NCBI GenBank assembly: GCA_963828735.1
Contig: CAWHFW010000005.1
Location: 2,692,838-2,756,837 of the forward strand
DNA: 64,000 nt
DNA from: an uncultured Gemmatimonadales bacterium
GTDB lineage: Bacteria > Gemmatimonadota > Gemmatimonadetes > Gemmatimonadales > GWC2-71-9
Reading direction: 5' to 3'
Shown: in pieces, positions 2,026 through 14,198 of the stretch
Numbering within the stretch: position 1 is the first letter of the stretch
How the letters are laid out: each line of letters begins with the position of its first letter
Translations under genes and position numbers: made by a program
The notes under the pieces: generated by a model
Told to the model about the DNA's origin: nothing
Database searches by the model: none
Seen by the model: the letters and a program-made list of their open reading frames with translations, nothing else

Positions 2026-4698
2026 CTACTGCCCGCCCGCCTGCAGCCGCTGGCGGAGCTCGGTCCGCCAGTTCGGCACGACGACCAGCGGGTAGGTCGC
2101 GGACGCCAAGCTCGGGCTCACGATCCGGGAACCGTCCCGGCTGACGTCGAAGTTGGCCTGGCCGAACCCGGTGGCGGCGCTGAGGATGTTGGCAAAGGCG
2201 GTGTCTCGCGAGATCACTCGCAACCCGGGGGAGGTCGCGAGCCGCGCTTCGATGACGGCCGGTCCCGAGACGTAGTAGAGCCGGGTGCCGTCCGCCGACC
2301 AGGCGGGCCCGGCGCCGCCACCTACCGAGATCTGGACCTTGATGCCCGGATCCGGATACGAGCGGACGTAAATCTCGAACCGCCCGGATTCGTTGGTCGC
2401 GAGGGCGGCCCATCGCCCGTCCGGCGATATGCGCGGCGTAACGTCGTTGGGCCCCGTCGCGCTGTACATGCTGAGCGCCCGGTTCGAGTCCAACGACACC
2501 CGCTGAATCGTCCACGCTGTATTGAGGATGCTCTGCACCAGCAGGGACCGGCCGTCCGGCGCCAGATCGACGATCGGGCTCAGCACGGGCACATCGACCA
2601 GCTTCTCCGGCGCGGTCGCGCCCCCGACGGACTGGACCCAGATGGCATCCTTGGGTCCGCTGCCCGGTGCAGAGTACACGATCCGTTCCCCGTCGTGGGT
2701 CCATCCAAAGGACGTGAGGGTGCCCGCGGAGGTGAGCCGGGAGAGCGTCGCCGTCGCGATGTCGTAGATCCACACGTCCGCTTTGGATCGTTCTCCGATC
2801 AGGACGGCGATGCGGCGACCATCCGGCGACAGCCGCGGGCTGGAGAAGGCGCGCGCCTCACGCGTGATCGGGTGCGACCCGCCGGACCGATCGATCCAGG
2901 TCAGCTGCGAGTGGGGGCCTTCCAGGCCCGAGACCAGCGCTCCTCCGGAGGAGATGAAGACGCCGGAGTTGCCGTTGAGCGCCGACTCGACCGAGACCGG
3001 GTCGAGCACGGGCACGGGCTTCCCCATGACCTTCCGCCGCGACAGATCGATCGGCACGGCCATCACGGCACCGTCCGCCTGGACGTAGACCAGCGCGCCA
3101 TCGATCACCGCCAGCGGCCTGATACCCTTGATGTCGAGCCGGGTGACGGCGCCGTCCTCCAGCGAGGCGATCGCCAGCCTGGACCGGCCCAGCGCGCCCG
3201 ACCAGATCGTGAACACGACGCCGCGGCCGTCCGGCAGCGCGATCGGCCAGTCGTGCTCCCGCTCACCCTTCGCGGTGTCGGGCTGTGTGAACTCGGTCAG
3301 CTCGCCGCCCGCGACGCTTACCCTCATCAGCCCGGGGTGGCTTCGGGTGGACCCAGTGACCAGCTCCCCCTTGGTTGTCCAGTCCGCACCGTTGCTGGCG
3401 CCGCCATCGGCGATCGTGACCGGGGCGCTGCCGTCGAGCCGGACCTTCCTCTCCTTGCCCGCCACCTCGAACGCCACCCAGCGGCCGTCCGGCGAGAACA
3501 GCGGTTGGGTCGCCGCCTCGGTGCCGGGGATCGGGTGGCCCTCGAGCTGATCGGAGCGGCGCGCGTACAGCATCTGGCTGCCTCGTTGCCGGACGCTATA
3601 CACCAGGGTGCCGCCGTCCGGCGAGATCGCTGCGGGCCACGGGTAGTTGTCGACGACGGGCGCGCTGTCCGAGCCCGCGAACACGAAGCGGAGCGGGGGC
3701 AGCTCGGCGCGGGGCGCCGGTGGGCGGCCGCGCAGCGCGGCGAAGCCGATCGCGACGAGGAGCGCAGCGGCGAGCGCGAGGACGATGGGGTCGCGAAGGC
3801 GGGAGCGGATCGCGATTCCCCGACCGGCGGTCGCCGGGGCGGCGGCCGTCACCCGGCGCGTGGTCGTCGGGCTCGCCAGCGCCTGCGCGAACTCCGCCGC
3901 CGTGCCGAACCGATCGGCCGGGAGCTTCTCGAGCGCCGTGAGCACCGCCGCCTCGACCTCAGGCGGGATGGTGTGACGCTGGGGCAGCAGCGGACGCGGG
4001 GCTTCGGTCACCACCCGCGCGACGATGGCCTGCGCCGTCGACCCGGTGAACGGCGGGTCGCCGGTGAGCATCTCGTAGAGCACCGCGCCGAGGGCGTAGA
4101 CGTCCGAGCGCGCCGTTATCTCGCGCTCGCCCATCGCCTGTTCGGGGGACATGTAGTGCGGCGTGCCGAGCGACATGCCCGTCTCGGTCATCCGGGTGCC
4201 GCTCGCCTTGCTCGCGGCGAGCGCGATGCCGAAGTCCGCCACGAGGGCCCGGCCGTCGTGCAGCAGGATGTTCTCGGGCTTGATGTCGCGATGGATGACG
4301 CCGTGGCGATGCGCGTAGTCCAGCGCCGAGGCGACTTCGCTTGCGACCCGGATCGCGTCGGCCACGGGCAGCTGCTTCTCCCGGTTGAGCCGGTCGCGCA
4401 GCGACTCGCCCTCGACGAAGGGCATGACGTAGAACAGGAAGGAGTCGGCTTCGCCCGAGTCGAACAGCGGGAGGATGTGCGGGTGCTGGAGATTGGCGGT
4501 GAGCTTGATCTCGGCCAGGAAGCGCTCGGCGCCGATCACGGCGGCGAGCTCGGGGCGCAGCAGCTTGAGGGCGACCTTGCGGTCGTGCCTCAGGTCCTGG
4601 GCGAGGTACACGGTCGCCATCCCGCCCGCGCCGATCTCACCTTCGATCCGGTACCGGTCGGCGAGCGCAACCTGGAGCCGGTAGAGCAGCTCGGGCAT
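2026..4698 (-). CDS. Membrane-anchored Ser/Thr kinase with C-terminal TolB-like (PD40/WD40) beta-propeller
   Basis: GAGGMATVY, VALK, HRDIKPEN, DFG and GTPHYMSPE motifs; hydrophobic segment IVLALAAALLVAIGFAAL; repeated SPDG motifs. Confidence 0.93.
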   Translation of the reverse strand: MPELLYRLQVALADRYRIEGEIGAGGMATVYLAQDLRHDRKVALKLLRPELAAVIGAERFLAEIKLTANLQHPHILPLFDSGEADSFLFYVMPFVEGESLRDRLNREKQLPVADAIRVASEVASALDYAHRHGVIHRDIKPENILLHDGRALVADFGIALAASKASGTRMTETGMSLGTPHYMSPEQAMGEREITARSDVYALGAVLYEMLTGDPPFTGSTAQAIVARVVTEAPRPLLPQRHTIPPEVEAAVLTALEKLPADRFGTAAEFAQALASPTTTRRVTAAAPATAGRGIAIRSRLRDPIVLALAAALLVAIGFAALRGRPPAPRAELPPLRFVFAGSDSAPVVDNYPWPAAISPDGGTLVYSVRQRGSQMLYARRSDQLEGHPIPGTEAATQPLFSPDGRWVAFEVAGKERKVRLDGSAPVTIADGGASNGADWTTKGELVTGSTRSHPGLMRVSVAGGELTEFTQPDTAKGEREHDWPIALPDGRGVVFTIWSGALGRSRLAIASLEDGAVTRLDIKGIRPLAVIDGALVYVQADGAVMAVPIDLSRRKVMGKPVPVLDPVSVESALNGNSGVFISSGGALVSGLEGPHSQLTWIDRSGGSHPITREARAFSSPRLSPDGRRIAVLIGERSKADVWIYDIATATLSRLTSAGTLTSFGWTHDGERIVYSAPGSGPKDAIWVQSVGGATAPEKLVDVPVLSPIVDLAPDGRSLLVQSILNTAWTIQRVSLDSNRALSMYSATGPNDVTPRISPDGRWAALATNESGRFEIYVRSYPDPGIKVQISVGGGAGPAWSADGTRLYYVSGPAVIEARLATSPGLRVISRDTAFANILSAATGFGQANFDVSRDGSRIVSPSLASATYPLVVVPNWRTELRQRLQAGGQ

Positions 4699-5791: not shown

Positions 5792-8700
5792 GTGTCCGAT
5801 CTGCGCGCGCAGCTCGAAGCCGGCCTGACTGATCAGTATGCCTTGCTCCGCGAGCTCGGCCGCGGCGGCATGGCGACGGTCTTTCTCGCGACCGACCTCA
5901 AGCACGATCGCCCCGTCGCCTTCAAGGTGCTCCATCCCGACCTCGCGCAGTCGCTCGGCCCCGAGCGGTTCCAGCGCGAGATAAGGCTCGCCGCCCGGCT
6001 GCAGCATCCGCACATCCTGACCGTGCACGACTCCGGTGCCACGGCCGGTCATCTCTGGTTCACCATGCCGTTCGTCGAGGGCGAGAGCCTGCGCGACCGG
6101 CTCCGGCGCGAACGGCAGCTCCCGCTCGAGGACGCGCTCCGCATCGCCCGCCAGGCGGCGCAAGCCCTGCACTACGCGCACGAGCACGGCGTGGTCCATC
6201 GCGACATCAAGCCCGAGAACCTGCTGCTCACGAGCGACGGCAACACCCTCGTCGCCGACTTCGGTATCGCGCGGGCCCTCGGCTCGGCGGACGATGACCA
6301 GCTCACCCAGACCGGCATGAGCGTGGGCACCCCGGCCTACATGAGCCCCGAGCAGGCCACCGGCGACCGCGCGCTCGACGCGCGGTCCGACGTCTACAGC
6401 CTGGGCTCGGTGCTGTTCGAGATGCTGGCGGGCGAGCAGCCGTACACCGGTCCCACGATGCAGGCCATTCTGATGAAGCGCCTGTCGGAGCCGGTGCCGC
6501 GGGTCCGGAGCGGGCGGCCGTCGGTGCCGGAGACGGTGGACGCAGCGATCTCCAAGGCCCTCGCGGTGGTGCCCGCCGACCGCTACGCCACCGCTGCCCT
6601 GTTCGCCAAAGCCCTCGATCAAGCCGCCACGATCAGCGGCAGTGCCATGGCGGCGACGACGCCCGTTGGGATTCCCGCTGCCACGACCGTCGCCGCCGAG
6701 CCGCGGCCGGCGCCCGCGTCCCTGCCGCGCTCGAGCCGCCGGCGCCTCGGCGTGGCGCTGGCCGGCGCGGGGCTGCTGGTCGCGGCACTGGTCGGGTGGT
6801 GGGCGCTCCGTCGAGCCCCCGCCGGCCCCGCCTCGGCGAACCACCTCGCCGTTCTGCCGTTCGCCGTCCATGGCGGCGGGCGGCTCGATTTCCTGGCCCA
6901 GGGCATGGTGGACCTGTTGAGCCGAAACCTCGACGGCGCGGGCGACATCCGGAGCGTCAACGGCGCGACCGTCCTGGCCGCGGCGCACGCCGACGGCGGC
7001 GTGGCCGATCTGGAGGAAGGGCGGCGGCTCGCCCGTCGGTTGGGCGCCGGGCTCTACGTGCTCGGCAGCGTGAGCGCGATCGGGAACCAGGTGCGCATCG
7101 AGGCCAGCCTCTACGACGGCGCGCCAGCGCAGCCGGCTATGGTCTCGCAGGCGAGCGTGAGCGGCGACACCACTCAGCTGTTCGAGCTGGTGGACCGGCT
7201 GGCCGGCGACCTCATGGTGCGGCAGGGCCGGGGCGTCGGCTCGCGCCTGCTCCAGACCGCCGCCACCACTACCCAGTCGCTGCCCGCGCTCAAGGCGTAC
7301 CTCGATGCCGAGGGGCAGCTCCGCCGCGGCGGGTTCGACTCGGCGCTGGCCGGCTTCCAGCAGGCCGTTCAGCTCGACAGCACCTTCGCGCTGGCCTACT
7401 ACCGGCTGGCGGTGGCCGCCGCGTGGTCCAGGCACACCGCGCTGATCCGGCCCAATACCGAGCGCGCCGTGCGCCTGGCCGATCGGTTGAGCGAGCGCGA
7501 CCGGCGGCTGCTGGAATCGTTCGCGGCGCTGGCCGACGGCAAGCCCGACGATGCGGAGAACGGCTACCGCGGCATTCTCCAGGACTATCCCGACGACCTC
7601 GAGGCGCAGTGGCAGCTCGCCACCGTGCTCAACGTCTACAATCCGCTGCGCGGGCGCCCGATTGCGGAATCGGCGCCGGTGTTCGACGGAGTGGTGAAGC
7701 TCGACCCCGAGTTTCTCTGCCCCATATGACCCATGATGCACCTCGCCGTGAGCGAGGAGGACATCGCGAAGGCCGAATCGCTGGTCGCCAGGGTGGGGAA
7801 GGACTACGCGGATAGCGCCATGTTCGCGGTGGCCGAGGGCGACAGCGCCCTGGTCGCGCGGCTGCTGCGTGAAGCCCGGGACAGCGCTCACATCGGTTTG
7901 GTGCTCAATGCCGCGTGGCAGGTCGGCGAGTGGCTGGAGCAGCCGGCCGCCGCCGAGCCGTTCGCCCGGGTCGGCGCGGCACGTCCCCAGCTGCCGGCGC
8001 GGCTCAACGCCGCCCTGGCGGAGAACCTGGTCAGCCAGGGGCGCTGGGCGGCGGCGGACAGCGCCTTCCTCCGCGCTGTCGGCACGGCCAACACCCCACT
8101 GCCGCGGCTGGAGCGGGGGATCACGGCGGCGCTCCCCTTCCTGCAGGTGCCGCGGCCGGTGCTCCAGGCCATCAGCGCCGATCTCTCGGCCTGGGACCCG
8201 GCGACGGACCGGTCGTTGGCGGTCGCTGCCGACCCCAGGGCCGCCATGGTGCCCGCGGTCCGCCTCTATGCGCTGGGCCTCCTCGCCGTGCGGCTCGGCG
8301 AGCCGGAGGCGGCGGCGCGCGCCGCGACTCAGCTCGAAGCGCTGCCGGTGTCGGATCAGGGCGCCGGGCCGGCCCGTTCGCTGGCGGCGGCGGTGCGGGC
8401 GGACCTGGCGCTCACCGCGCGCCGCCCGGCCGATGCGTTGACGGCGCTGGCGGGCGTGCGGGGCGCCGTGCCGCTGAGCCTCAGCGGCACGGCGCCGTTC
8501 TCCGAGGACTACGCGCGCTACCTCCGCGGCGAGGCGCTCCTCGCGCTCGGCAAGGACGCCGAGGCCCGACGCTGGCTGGAGAACGGCTTCGGCGGCACGC
8601 CGGACGTCATGACCTTCCGGGTCCCGGTGCTGTTCCGGCTGGGCGACCTCTACGAGCGCGGGGGCGAGCGGCAGAAGGCCATCGACGCATACGCGCGGGT

Positions 8701-8797
8701 CGTGCGGCTCTGGTCGGCCTGCGACGCGCCGCTTCGGCCTGCTGTGGACGATGCACGGGCACGGCTGGCGCGGCTGACGGCGGAGCCGAGGAGCTAG
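5792..8797 (+). CDS. Ser/Thr kinase - TM - TolB-N-like - TPR receptor kinase with one in-frame TGA (7727-7729); candidate selenoprotein (CxxU), 1001 aa if read through
   Basis: ORFs 5792-7729 and 7733-8797 are in the same frame, separated only by TGA-CCC. Kinase motifs GRGGMATV, HRDIKPEN, DFG, GTPAYMSPE; TM LGVALAGAGLLVAALVGWWAL; LAVLPF. TPR-like helices continue across the TGA to a C-terminal LWSACDAPLRP. Confidence 0.75.
7735..7765 (+). promoter_or_regulatory. Candidate bacterial SECIS element
   Basis: Stem CCTCGC (7741-7746)/GCGAGG (7752-7757) with loop CGTGA; lower stem GATG (7735-7738)/CATC (7762-7765). The upper stem starts 11 nt after the TGA. Confidence 0.6.
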
Positions 8798-8957: not shown

Positions 8958-9059
8958 TCGGAATAGTCGGCGGTTCGTGATGGTCGGATGCGCCGCTGTC
9001 TGGCGGAGCCTGGCACTCCGCCCCACCTTTGGGATCGTGAGCTCCGGCCCGAGGGCAAC

Positions 9060-10595
9060 GTGGCCGATCCTACCGCTTACCACATCCCAGCTCCGAGTCA
9101 TCAGCCGCAGCCCGCCTCGATCGTCCGGGTGGCTGTCGCTGTTCTATGCGTCGGAACCGCCCGCTTCCCATTCCCCGGTCCCCTCGCGGCGCAAGGCGTA
9201 ACCGGCGCGGCCGTCGAGGGCAGGGTGCTCGGCGTGGACAGCACCCCGGTGGAGCAGGCGATCGTCCAGGTGCTGAACACGTCCACCGGCGAGCGGTCAC
9301 AGGCGACGACGGGCGCTCGTGGCCGCTACTTCATCGAGTATCTGTCGGTGGGCGGGCCGTACCGCATCGAGGTGGTCGCCATCGGGTACGAGCCGGCGGG
9401 GCGGGACTCCATCTTCCTCGCGCTTGGCCAGCGCCTGACCGCAAACTTTACCCTGACACCGGCCGTGGTGCAGCTGCAGGAGATCACCGTCAGGGGTACC
9501 ACGGATCTTCGCCTCGGCGCCGCCCGCACCGGTCCCGCCCAGATCATCACGGACAGCACCATTGTCCGGCTACCGGTGAACCACCGCGACTACACCGAGC
9601 TCGCCGTTCTCTCGCCCCAGGTCACCAAGAGCCCGAACGGCGGGCTGTCCTTCGCGGGGCAGCACGATCGGTACAACAGCATCCAGATCGACGGGACCAA
9701 CAACAACGACCCCTTCGGCCGCTCGTTCTCCGGGAACGGTACACCGGGTTGGGCCGTCGGGTTGACCGCGTTCACTCCCGAAGCGGTGAAGGAGCTTCAG
9801 GTCGTGAGCGCGCCGTTCGATGTTCGTTACGGCGGCTTCGCCGGCGGCCTGATCAACGCCGTGACCCGCTCGGGCACGAACCGGGTCGAGGGCTCGATCC
9901 TGGGCTATTTCGAGAACGCCGACCTGACCGGCACGGACTCGACCGGCAACCGGGCGAGCGAGTTCAGCCGGAAGGAGCTCGGCCTGACCCTGGGCGCGCC
10001 GATCGTGCGGGACCGCGTCGCGGTGTTCGTCAACGCCGCGCTACGCGAGGAGGTGATTCCCCAGTCGGTCCCTGTTCCGACCAGCGACACGACCGGCGGA
10101 GCGGACTCGGCCGGGGTGGGAATCCGCTACGAGAGCCTGGTGCGCTTCCAGGACCTCTTGCGGAACTACGGTGTCGAGCCGGGAACCTTTTCTGCCGGGG
10201 CGTACCATGCTCCCACCAGCAATCTCTTCGTCAAGGTGACGGCGCAACTCGGGACGAACAGTCGGCTGGCGGTATCCCACAACTACGGGCACGGCAACGT
10301 CCGGGACGAGTCCCTCGGCCGGTCCACCGACTCCTATCCGCTCTCCTCGAGTGGCGGTGAGAACCCCGAAACCATCAACGCCACACGGCTGGCCTGGACC
10401 ACGGCCTTCGCGGCACGGCTCTCCAACGAGCTCATTGTGGCCCGAGTTGACGACCGGCGAAACTGCTTTCCAACCTCGGACTTTCCGGCAGTGTCCGTGC
10501 GGGCTGACGGCGGGGAGCTTTCCGCGGGAGTTGCCGGCAGCTGCCTCGGGCTCGAGGCCGGGCATACCATCTGGGAGATGACCGACAACGACATG
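9060..10595 (+). CDS. TonB-dependent receptor (Oar-like, carboxypeptidase-regulatory-like N-domain), truncated at the junction
   Basis: GTG at 9060 after GAGGG; motifs GGPYRIEV, YNSIQIDG, PFDVRYGGFAGGLINAVTRSGTN, LGAPIVRDR. Only about half the usual length before the junction. Confidence 0.85.
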
Positions 10596-10631
10596 GCAAT
10601 CGTTTTTTGTTAAGCGTTTCAGCGTCTTGCT
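10596..10631. other. Chimeric junction resembling a degraded Nanopore ligation adapter
   Basis: GCAATCGT-TTTTTGTTAAGCGTTTCAGCGTCTTGCT resembles the adapter end GCAATACGT followed by the adapter start TTTT..TGTACTTCGTTCAGTTACGTATTGCT. Genes on both sides are truncated and gene content switches lineage. Confidence 0.75.
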
Positions 10632-10659: not shown

Positions 10660-11013
10660 ATCTAGGACTACCAACGCTCGCCTGCTCGGTGTCGTACAGC
10701 GCACGGAAACGGAACGGGATCCAGACCGGATCGCGCCCCAGCTGAAGCTGTCCGGTTCCGTGCAGGTCACGCTGGACGATCCCCGCGGACGTGGCCTGCA
10801 CCCGCCCGAGGCGGACCTGGACCGCTCGCTCGCCGAACTGGCTCGAGATGGCGCCGATCAGCGCTGCCGCAGTCGCATCATCGATTGCCACGGCCGCCTG
10901 TCCGCGCGACTGCGGCGGCGGTGCGAGCGCCTTCCCGACGACGCTCGTCGCCGGCGTGCCGGCGATGGAACCGGCACCGAGCAAGAACGCGGACGCGAGA
11001 CGAGACGGAGCAT
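10660..11013 (-). CDS. Hypothetical exported protein downstream of lolA; 3'-truncated, probable indel near the start
   Basis: Reads [21 protein letters not shown]...[18 protein letters not shown]. Likely ATG at 11013 (MLRL...) is out of frame with the body. Confidence 0.55.
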
Positions 11014-11114
11014 CGTTTCCCGGAGGAACAGTCGTGGACGGATCGCTCCACCTTCCCGCTCCGGCCGTCGACGCGTCGTGATCCGACATGCGCGCCGCTG
11101 AACGCGTTCAGGCG

Positions 11115-11750
11115 TTATTCGGCTGGCGCCAACCCTCGCCGACGATGTCGACCCCCTTGGCCGGCACGAATCGGAACGTGCCCGCCGGAAAGGACGGATT
11201 GCGCTTCCAGCCACTGAAGTCGATGCGGGTCTTCTGCCCCAGTGCGTCGACGACCTGCATGGTCGCCAGGCCCTGCGCACCGAAGCCGAGCCGGGCGGAC
11301 TTGAATCCGTGTGTCGTCCGCCTTTCGCGGCGAGACGTCGAGCCATGCGAGCCCGTCCTTCGCTTCCGGCGTCTTGCAGGAGGTAGTCGCGCTCCAGCTT
11401 CGCGGGATCGACCAGCGCGGCGAGCGGGCTGTTCTGCTCTTCCGCACCCTGGGCGCACGGGTGACCTGCTGCAGGTCCGGGTCGTACACCCAGACGCGCT
11501 GGCCGTCGGCGACGATCAGCTGCTCGTACGGCTTGTTGTATTCCCAGCGGAACAGGTGCGGCGCGGACAGCGCGACGCGGCCGCTCGATGTTTCCTTCGG
11601 CTTGCCGTTGGCGTCGAACACCTGCTGCGTGAACTGGCCATCGAGGCCCTTGAGGCCCTTGGTGAACGTGGTCAGGTCGTCGCGTCCACCGGCGAAGGCG
11701 GTGGTCGCGACCAACGCAGAGGAAAGGCCGGCCAGGCGGATGGCGCGCAT
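11115..11750 (-). CDS. lolA: Outer-membrane lipoprotein carrier LolA (frameshifted)
   Basis: [36 protein letters not shown] and [14 protein letters not shown] spread across frames; lies downstream of ftsK. Confidence 0.92.
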
Positions 11751-11834
11751 TGCTCGTCTCCTGTCGATCGTTGCGGCAAGTCTGGCGTCGCCAGCTGAAT
11801 GCGCATTCGACGGTCGTCGAACGCGAACTGAACT

Positions 11835-14198
<2,364 letters not shown>

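Follow-up and report, generated by a model that had tools for sequence, protein, structure and literature searches.

Introduction

Almost every bacterial selenoprotein described so far is a redox or metabolic enzyme. We analysed a 64,000-nucleotide (nt) stretch of DNA from an uncultured Gemmatimonadales bacterium, referred to hereafter as the window (GenBank assembly GCA_963828735.1, contig CAWHFW010000005.1, forward strand positions 2,692,838 to 2,756,837), in which the coding sequence at window positions 5792..8797 (+) is interrupted by an in-frame TGA at 7727-7729. Comparison with homologues indicates that this is very probably a single gene, encoding a 1001-residue membrane receptor Ser/Thr kinase in which a hairpin directs the insertion of selenocysteine (Sec, U) at the UGA. 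If this is true, the presence of Sec in the sensor of a receptor kinase extends selenium biology to signal perception.

Among described systems, bacterial selenoprotein genes decoded by SelB through a selenocysteine insertion element inside the reading frame, of which Escherichia coli fdhF is the prototype, share with the window gene an in-frame UGA and a 17-nt stem-loop located 11 nt downstream, with a loop carrying G and then U, along with cysteine homologues and a genome that carries selA, selB, selC and selD. The 17-nt upper stem-loop of E. coli lies 11 nt from the UGA (PMC8659212, section 13), so that the length and the distance are those of the window hairpin. The two systems differ in that the carrier here is a signalling receptor rather than a redox or metabolic enzyme, and in that the codon preceding the UGA is fixed as ATA. 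Furthermore, in some relatives of the window gene, two UGA codons at a distance of 9 nt appear to share one hairpin.

The thioredoxin-fold selenoproteins with CxxU, UxxC or UxxU motifs (SelW-like, Grx, Trx and Prx-like thiol:disulfide oxidoreductase entries in Table 1 of PMC13188914) also carry a pair of chalcogen residues with two-residue spacing, the second of which lies at a helix N-terminus, as it does in our structural model, and Cys and Sec have interchanged in their evolution as well. The window protein, in contrast, places the motif in an all-alpha tetratricopeptide repeat (TPR) solenoid and has no oxidoreductase domain anywhere. Selenoprotein O (SelO), a pseudokinase, is soluble and has its Sec close to the C-terminus. 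Selenoprotein O-like (PF02696), which has a protein-kinase-like fold (PMC3281104), is the only kinase-fold entry in the selenoprotein catalogue (Table 1 of PMC13188914). The window protein differs in having a canonical Hanks kinase and its Sec in a separate sensor domain, and PF02696 was absent from the Pfam matches listed for it at E ≤ 0.01. A TonB-dependent receptor with an FCYXU motif, a newly recognised selenoprotein in Table 1 of PMC13188914, shares an envelope location and a CxxU that follows Phe; it is an outer-membrane beta-barrel with no kinase, and NF049945 was absent from the NCBIfam matches listed for the window protein.

Table 1 of this 2026 review, which sets out 119 prokaryotic selenoprotein families and subfamilies, names no protein kinase, TPR or TolB-like receptor; its nearest entries are Selenoprotein O-like and the TonB-dependent receptor with the FCYXU motif (PMC13188914). 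NCBIfam release 20 matched the window protein with kinase and TPR models alone, and with no selenoprotein model. The word 'kinase' does not occur among the at least 335 Gemmatimonadota entries listed in the BSepDB supplement, though the full BSepDB may have the family under another name, and a full-text literature search for Gemmatimonadetes or Gemmatimonadota selenoproteins with kinase wording returned nothing relevant. The closest proteins of the same build are Cys-free paralogues of Gemmatimonadota and relatives, present in many copies per genome, in which a kinase, BTAD or cyclase domain, a transmembrane (TM) helix, a 'TolB-like' part and TPRs follow in the same order, with 30-38% identity in the sensor. 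Unlike the Sec clade, they have an ordinary ...DPxHxxALxHLARIA... turn, without Cys or Sec and without a hairpin. TIGR04510 matched residues 406-889 weakly, below its cut-off. On sequence evidence, the predicted receptor Ser/Thr kinases with CxxU in the sensor, replaced by UxxU in one sister clade, make up a genuine selenoprotein family that annotation has missed.

Results

The reading frame through the TGA

The upstream open reading frame (ORF), 5792-7729 (+), starts with GTG at 5792, specifies 645 amino acids and has the 3' end CTC TGC CCC ATA TGA, the protein ending ...LDPEFL-C-P-I at the TGA. Beyond the TGA the same frame continues as CCC ATG ATG ..., with an ATG at 7733, and runs to a stop at 8795-8797. 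When the TGA is read as U, the product is a 1001-residue protein with the motif C643-P-I-U646, in which the Cys643 codon TGC occupies 7718..7720 and the putative Sec codon 7727..7729. The 645-residue ORF ending at CPI-TGA, its continuation in the same frame and the 1001-residue read-through product had been described in an earlier note on this DNA, and all three were confirmed in the sequence.

Conservation of the TGA and its cysteine counterparts

Residues 540-800 of the read-through protein were searched against 5.8 billion proteins, giving 87 matches. The window's own called protein is one of 65 that stop exactly at ...CPI, and seven stop at ...DPGFL. Six are read-through forms in which Cys takes the place of the TGA (CLTC in P0002 and P0003, CVVC in P0013, CTFC in P0014, CPVC in P0055 and P0062), one of them being also the genome locus L069; the remaining nine are more distant. 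The 'stop' is thus conserved among homologues down to about 50% identity. With 72 of 87 public homologue records cut at the TGA codon, annotation pipelines systematically lose the C-terminal 355 residues.

When 41 related genomes were searched with translation through stops, several genomes of the same genus gave full-length matches containing one in-frame TGA, and in eight genomes of the genus (L022-L029) the TGA fell at the identical alignment codon in 8/8 loci. Nine more distant paralogues have a Cys-free turn, ...DPDHxGAxVHL..., at the motif; one of these rows (L033) comes from the unpublished genome G003. A further locus that had been flagged as containing one TGA (L030, in G018) was rejected as a member of the family type, having no stop in the aligned stretch and no motif Cys. 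A same-genus orthologue, G161:C2:727903-729392, gave a pair of matches that overlap, and the first of the pair contains two TGA codons, which may reflect either a UxxU motif or a break in frame.

A scan of species-representative genomes yielded 80 loci, all but one from Gemmatimonadota metagenome-assembled genomes, and 76 of these matched the 105-residue piece that spans the motif. The Sec column was TGA in 42, TGC in one (L069), another residue in 31, all paralogues, and absent in two. In the 42 Sec-type loci the first motif codon was TGC (25), TGT (7) or TGA (10). Contigs from Joint Genome Institute (JGI) metagenomes gave a similar picture: of 80 loci, 55 matched the motif piece, comprising 36 of Sec type, 15 paralogues and four lacking the column, with a first motif codon of TGC in 17, TGT in 10 and TGA in nine of the Sec-type loci. 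Counting both scans, TGA stands at the Sec column in 78 loci other than the window's own, from independent assemblies.

In 19 loci, 10 from genomes (L074, L085, L087, L089, L090, L091, L093, L097, L098 and L099) and nine from metagenomes (L160, L164-L168, L171, L174 and L178), both motif positions are TGA, 9 nt apart and followed by one hairpin. Since the second TGA of these UxxU forms falls at the Cys column, a gene boundary does not explain it. The forms also provide a natural test of whether one bacterial selenocysteine insertion sequence (SECIS) can serve two nearby UGA codons.

Conservation extends well beyond the TGA. Single tblastn high-scoring segment pairs cross the TGA column (query residues 1-501), the mean column identity over 30 aligned sequences is 59%, and conservation of the protein persists over some 355 residues past the TGA. 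The 3' end is complete in 37 genome loci, and in these the frame after the TGA stays open for 289-379 codons. The terminal stop of 13 of these 37 loci is itself TGA, showing that the codon is not reassigned genome-wide.

A hairpin downstream of the TGA

A 17-nt hairpin, CCUCGC-CGUGA-GCGAGG, occupies 7741..7757 (+), beginning 11 nt after the UGA. It has a 6-bp stem and a 5-nt loop, CGUGA, in which G stands at position 2 with U next to it; the loop lies 17 nt from the UGA, and the minimum free energy (MFE) is -8.9 kcal/mol. The published bacterial SECIS (bSECIS) model specifies a stem of 4-16 bp, a loop of 3-9 nt with G in the first two loop positions, a UGA-to-loop distance of 16-37 nt and an MFE of -7.5 kcal/mol or lower (legend to Fig. 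2 of PMC13188914), and the window hairpin lies within all four of these constraints. In Sec-type loci from both genomes and metagenomes, CCUCGC-CGUG(A/C)-GCGAGG begins 11 nt 3' of the UGA, and in the UxxU forms the upstream UGA is 26 nt from the loop, which is also inside the 16-37 range. A scan of 7600-7900 against Rfam produced a chance match alone (E = 0.97).

Covariation was assessed in 42 sequences, the window and 41 genome loci; the Cys form L069 was set aside, as was L083, whose downstream sequence is too short. Stem positions were paired in 99.6% of 240 cells. Compensatory changes were seen in four cells at two pairs (U-A in L087 and L089, G-C in L104, and U-A at the second pair in L101), there were no one-sided changes, and one cell was unpaired (L131). 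In 500 shuffles, neither the pairing nor the covariation score ever came up to that of the real alignment. In the Cys form L069 the corresponding sequence is CCTCGC GGTCT ATCAGG, and the stem cannot form.

The hairpin is also evident in codon usage. Among 30 aligned genes, its codons are fixed or nearly so: Leu is CTC in 30/30, Ala GCC in 29/30, Val GTG in 29/30 and Glu GAG in 30/30. The Ile645 codon immediately 5' of the UGA (7724..7726) is ATA in 30/30 and in all rows of the 42-row alignment. In contrast, none of 139 other degenerate codon columns with at least 90% amino-acid conservation had zero entropy, the mean codon entropy being 1.48 bits for the 108 four- and six-fold columns and 0.74 bits for the 31 two-fold columns. 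We consider the frozen synonymous codons to be a stronger signal than the covariation. The base 3' of the UGA is C in 40/42 sequences, which, together with the invariant ATA, suggests a tuned decoding context. ATA is expected to be rare in DNA so rich in GC.

Selenocysteine machinery and accuracy of the sequence

The genome from which the window derives consists of seven contigs totalling 4.78 Mb. It contains selD (371 bits), selB (256 bits), selA (322 bits) and tRNA-Sec (65 bits), all scoring above cut-offs, and ARAGORN assigned the anticodon TCA to the tRNA-Sec. Two molybdopterin oxidoreductase genes, G000:C5:22542-24410 and G000:C5:2563298-2564038, have one in-frame TGA each, which is presumably the usual Sec codon; one of the two is FdhA-like (664 bits). 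No correlation was found between the presence of the machinery and the Sec form, the genome of a Cys form having selA and tRNA-Sec as well.

The selA of this genome lies in three consecutive pieces in three frames (G000:C2:304867-306146, L019). Inspection of the breakpoint sequence gave no explanation for the shifts of frame. In the window itself, ftsK (10858-14198, -) is similarly distributed over three overlapping ORFs in different frames, covering the four-TM region (12585-14198), the alpha and motor domains (11672-13855) and the end of the motor with the gamma domain (10858-12585). In five other genomes with family members selA is intact in 5/5, and tRNA-Sec is present in all five. Given that FtsK shows the same kind of split and that these relatives have an unbroken selA, indels in the assembly are the likelier cause of the breaks.

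The TGA was also recovered in data of other origin. One is a 635-nt contig of a different DNA study, spanning 7400-7959; it differs from the window at 15 positions, none of which is at 7727-7729. The other is a 315-nt contig from two soil RNA libraries, which may stem from contaminating DNA; it spans 7504-7818 with two differences, again none at these positions. The RNA runs concerned, X15 and X16, may be duplicate deposits of a single data set.

Evidence for and against selenocysteine insertion

On these data, the TGA at 7727-7729 is almost certainly a Sec codon. Were it instead a true stop, the locus would consist of two adjacent genes in the same frame, one for a truncated kinase of 645 residues and one for a separate TPR protein of 354. 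This is what gene callers report, with 65/87 homologues ending ...CPI and 7/87 ending ...DPGFL, and ATG codons are available at 7733 and 7736. Yet a stop here would divide a TPR solenoid that the model shows, with high confidence, to be continuous (see below), Leu rather than Met occupies the supposed start in L082, L077, L080 and L096, read-through homologues have Cys at exactly the TGA column, nineteen loci have another TGA three codons upstream, and synonymous codons are held fixed in a hairpin that stands at the distance of a SECIS. We therefore regard two separate genes as very improbable. The TGA might also be an error of sequencing or assembly, or a nonsense mutation that arose recently in a gene under decay, and the assembly does contain frame errors, selA and FtsK each being spread over three frames. 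The probability of such an origin is nevertheless negligible, given the same TGA in 78 other loci from independent assemblies, in contigs of another DNA study and of RNA libraries, and the conservation of the protein for some 355 residues past it. The earlier note had predicted that homologues would have TGA or Cys at the motif column with conservation on both sides, that they would not prove to be two genes in different frames, that selA, selB, selC and selD would be found in the source genome and that the TGA would not be a sequence error. The first and the last of these predictions held up in the alignments and in the independent assemblies, respectively; the homologues remain in one frame, with the 289-379 open codons noted above, and all four genes are present, selA being the one that is split.

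Several observations weigh on the other side. The split selA could mean that the Sec pathway is broken in this strain. Four of the six stem pairs never vary, so that the covariation rests on few events, and the metagenome loci gave no further stem variants; covariation support for the hairpin is real but thin. Taken alone, the fold of the 86 nt that follow the motif in the window is not unusual (z = -1.5), and the significance of the hairpin thus comes from the comparative data.

Domain layout, carriers and phylogeny

The N-terminal part of the read-through protein is a Hanks-type kinase domain (residues 16-269; 5837..6598), matched by Pfam PF00069 at 171 bits against a cut-off of 31.7 and containing the catalytic motifs VAFK (42-45), HRD136, DFG156 and SPE185. 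It is followed by a single TM segment, VALAGAGLLVAALVGWWAL (residues 321-339; 6752..6808), which is the top 19-residue Kyte-Doolittle window (2.07) and is flanked by arginines on both sides. Beyond the TM helix lie an alpha/beta module (residues 346-476; 6827..7219), delimited in the AlphaFold2 model as domain residues 1-131, and an all-helical TPR solenoid containing the CxxU motif (residues 477-1001; 7220..8794), identified from the model, Foldseek and Pfam TPR matches. Several homologues of the protein are named 'TolB-like protein' by JGI. The kinase, TM and TPR parts of the layout proposed in the earlier note are thus borne out by Pfam and hydrophobicity, while its 'TolB-N-like' label is not, there being no TolB_N Pfam match in the read-through protein at E ≤ 0.01.

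The module does not occur behind kinases alone. A kinase is visible in 29/36 Sec-type metagenome loci, the N-terminus being off the contig in the other seven, and L074 and L089, both of them UxxU loci, have the complete kinase. In L101 and L104, however, the module lies behind a kinase-less membrane anchor, and in the protein records P0074 and P0075, which end ...DPEFLCPI, it is preceded by a SARP/BTAD domain and one TM helix. Proteins of the latter type would be ToxR-like transcription regulators with a Sec module, an architecture that rests on these two truncated records. BTAD carriers were also sought at the DNA level in the metagenome scan, and the BTAD loci recovered were all Cys-free paralogues. 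The occurrence of the same module behind various membrane anchors points to a portable sensor. Neither the UxxU forms nor the kinase-less carriers had been foreseen in the earlier note.

A quick maximum-likelihood tree was built from 71 rows, namely the window, 65 genome loci with a match of at least 400 query residues and five database proteins. Loci with a shorter match, which include L069, are not part of it. All CxxU, UxxU and CxxC forms constitute one clade of 43 rows (Shimodaira-Hasegawa-like approximate likelihood ratio test, SH-aLRT, 100). Within it the UxxU forms are a single sub-clade of 10 (SH-aLRT 100), and the CxxC forms are nested in two places of the Sec-type clade. In an even sample of the phylum, 21/401 genomes had a match at E ≤ 1e-60. 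The 26 matches comprised 17 with one TGA, three with two and six with none, TGA being counted anywhere in the match; one of the rows with a single TGA comes from an unpublished genome (G094).

Several family members appear to co-occur in the same soil samples. At 7735, contigs from runs X5 and X7 show loose ends: these contigs, from other organisms, diverge upstream and carry ...TACGACCTCGCCGTGCGCGAGG..., the hairpin of a paralogous Sec clade.

Structure of the motif and proposed function

Residues 346-1001 were modelled with AlphaFold2 on the 30-sequence alignment. The model has a mean pLDDT (predicted local distance difference test) of 91 and a pTM (predicted template modelling score) of 0.88, and consists of the alpha/beta module followed by a continuous helical solenoid. 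Assignment of secondary structure by DSSP places Cys643 (domain residue 298) in the loop that comes behind the ...LDP... turn, and makes Sec646 (domain residue 301) the second residue of helix 300-309. Such helix-N-terminus geometry is common to redox CxxC motifs and CxxC metal sites, and helix A of a TPR lines the concave groove. No thioredoxin-like family is among the Pfam and NCBIfam matches listed, the motif being in an all-helical solenoid and not in a thioredoxin fold.

The kinase, BTAD and kinase-less forms all have one TM helix ahead of the module, which is therefore probably extracytoplasmic, and the placement of the motif outside the cytoplasm that the earlier note proposed fits this topology. 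The UGA at 7727-7729 is very probably decoded by SelB and Sec-tRNA(Sec) under the direction of the hairpin at 7741-7757, and we suggest that the C/U pair might then cycle between selenol/thiol and selenenylsulfide states with oxidants, reductants or reactive sulfur or selenium species of the envelope. A resulting change in the solenoid could pass through the TM helix to the cytoplasmic Hanks kinase. The UxxU relatives would have a diselenide or a two-selenolate site in place of the C/U pair. A selenenylsulfide/selenol redox switch of this kind is a tentative assignment, to which we give slightly less than an even chance. Some results tell against a firm assignment of function: Foldseek searches of the model against the PDB returned generic TPR solenoids alone (TM-scores 0.16-0.34), and tblastn of the five flanking ORFs against the 80 genome loci disclosed no conserved neighbour, returning cross-matches to each locus's own kinase domain and one weak match. 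In addition, the topology rests on one hydrophobic segment and on analogy with the related architectures.

Sec could be inserted as proposed and still serve another purpose. In one alternative the C/U pair would bind a soft metal or metalloid, such as Cu(I), Hg, Cd, arsenite or a species derived from selenite, and the ligand would set kinase output. The arrangement of a loop and a helix N-terminus in the model and the existence of UxxU forms are both compatible with such a site, whereas no metal-handling gene is conserved beside the kinase gene, no HMA or other metal-binding family is among the Pfam and NCBIfam matches listed, and a third conserved ligand is lacking, the C-terminal Cys in ...LWxxCD... 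not being invariant in the aligned homologues. A metal or metalloid site is possible but unlikely. A different proposal is that UGA decoding is itself the signal, scarce selenium giving a truncated receptor and the amount of full-length protein reporting selenium supply. Sec insertion competes with termination in bacteria, the truncated product would keep the kinase and the TM helix, and the invariant rare ATA before the UGA hints at a tuned decoding context. Against this proposal, half a solenoid is likely to be unstable, and Cys-form orthologues are found in genomes that keep the Sec machinery, which indicates that the chemistry of the residue matters more than recoding. We consider signalling by decoding quite improbable. 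Structural roles of the motif, together with selenium-gated production of the full-length receptor, account for the remainder of the probability.

Returning to the sensor reading, we propose, as a broader scheme that falls a little short of being probable, that these proteins constitute the first selenoprotein family in bacterial signal transduction. In this scheme a portable extracytoplasmic TPR sensor would use its CxxU or UxxU motif to read envelope redox state, reactive chalcogens or soft metals, would be joined in most cases to a Hanks kinase and, it appears, in others to SARP/BTAD regulators and bare membrane anchors, and in its UxxU form would depend on one SECIS to decode two UGA codons 9 nt apart. 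The single, mutable reactive residue offers a handle on an abundant and unstudied class of Gemmatimonadota receptors.

Neighbouring genes

Downstream of the kinase gene, 8988-10613 (+) encodes a protein with a CarboxypepD_reg domain and an outer-membrane beta-barrel that stops after 541 residues. The gene is shorter than expected for such receptors and may be truncated or frameshifted. It was considered as a second selenoprotein, of the TonB receptor type with FCYXU, and was rejected, as its stop is not TGA and what comes after the stop has no coding appearance. On the other side of the kinase gene, upstream and in the opposite orientation, 2026-4698 (-) encodes a second receptor kinase, in which a Pkinase domain is combined with PD40 beta-propeller repeats.

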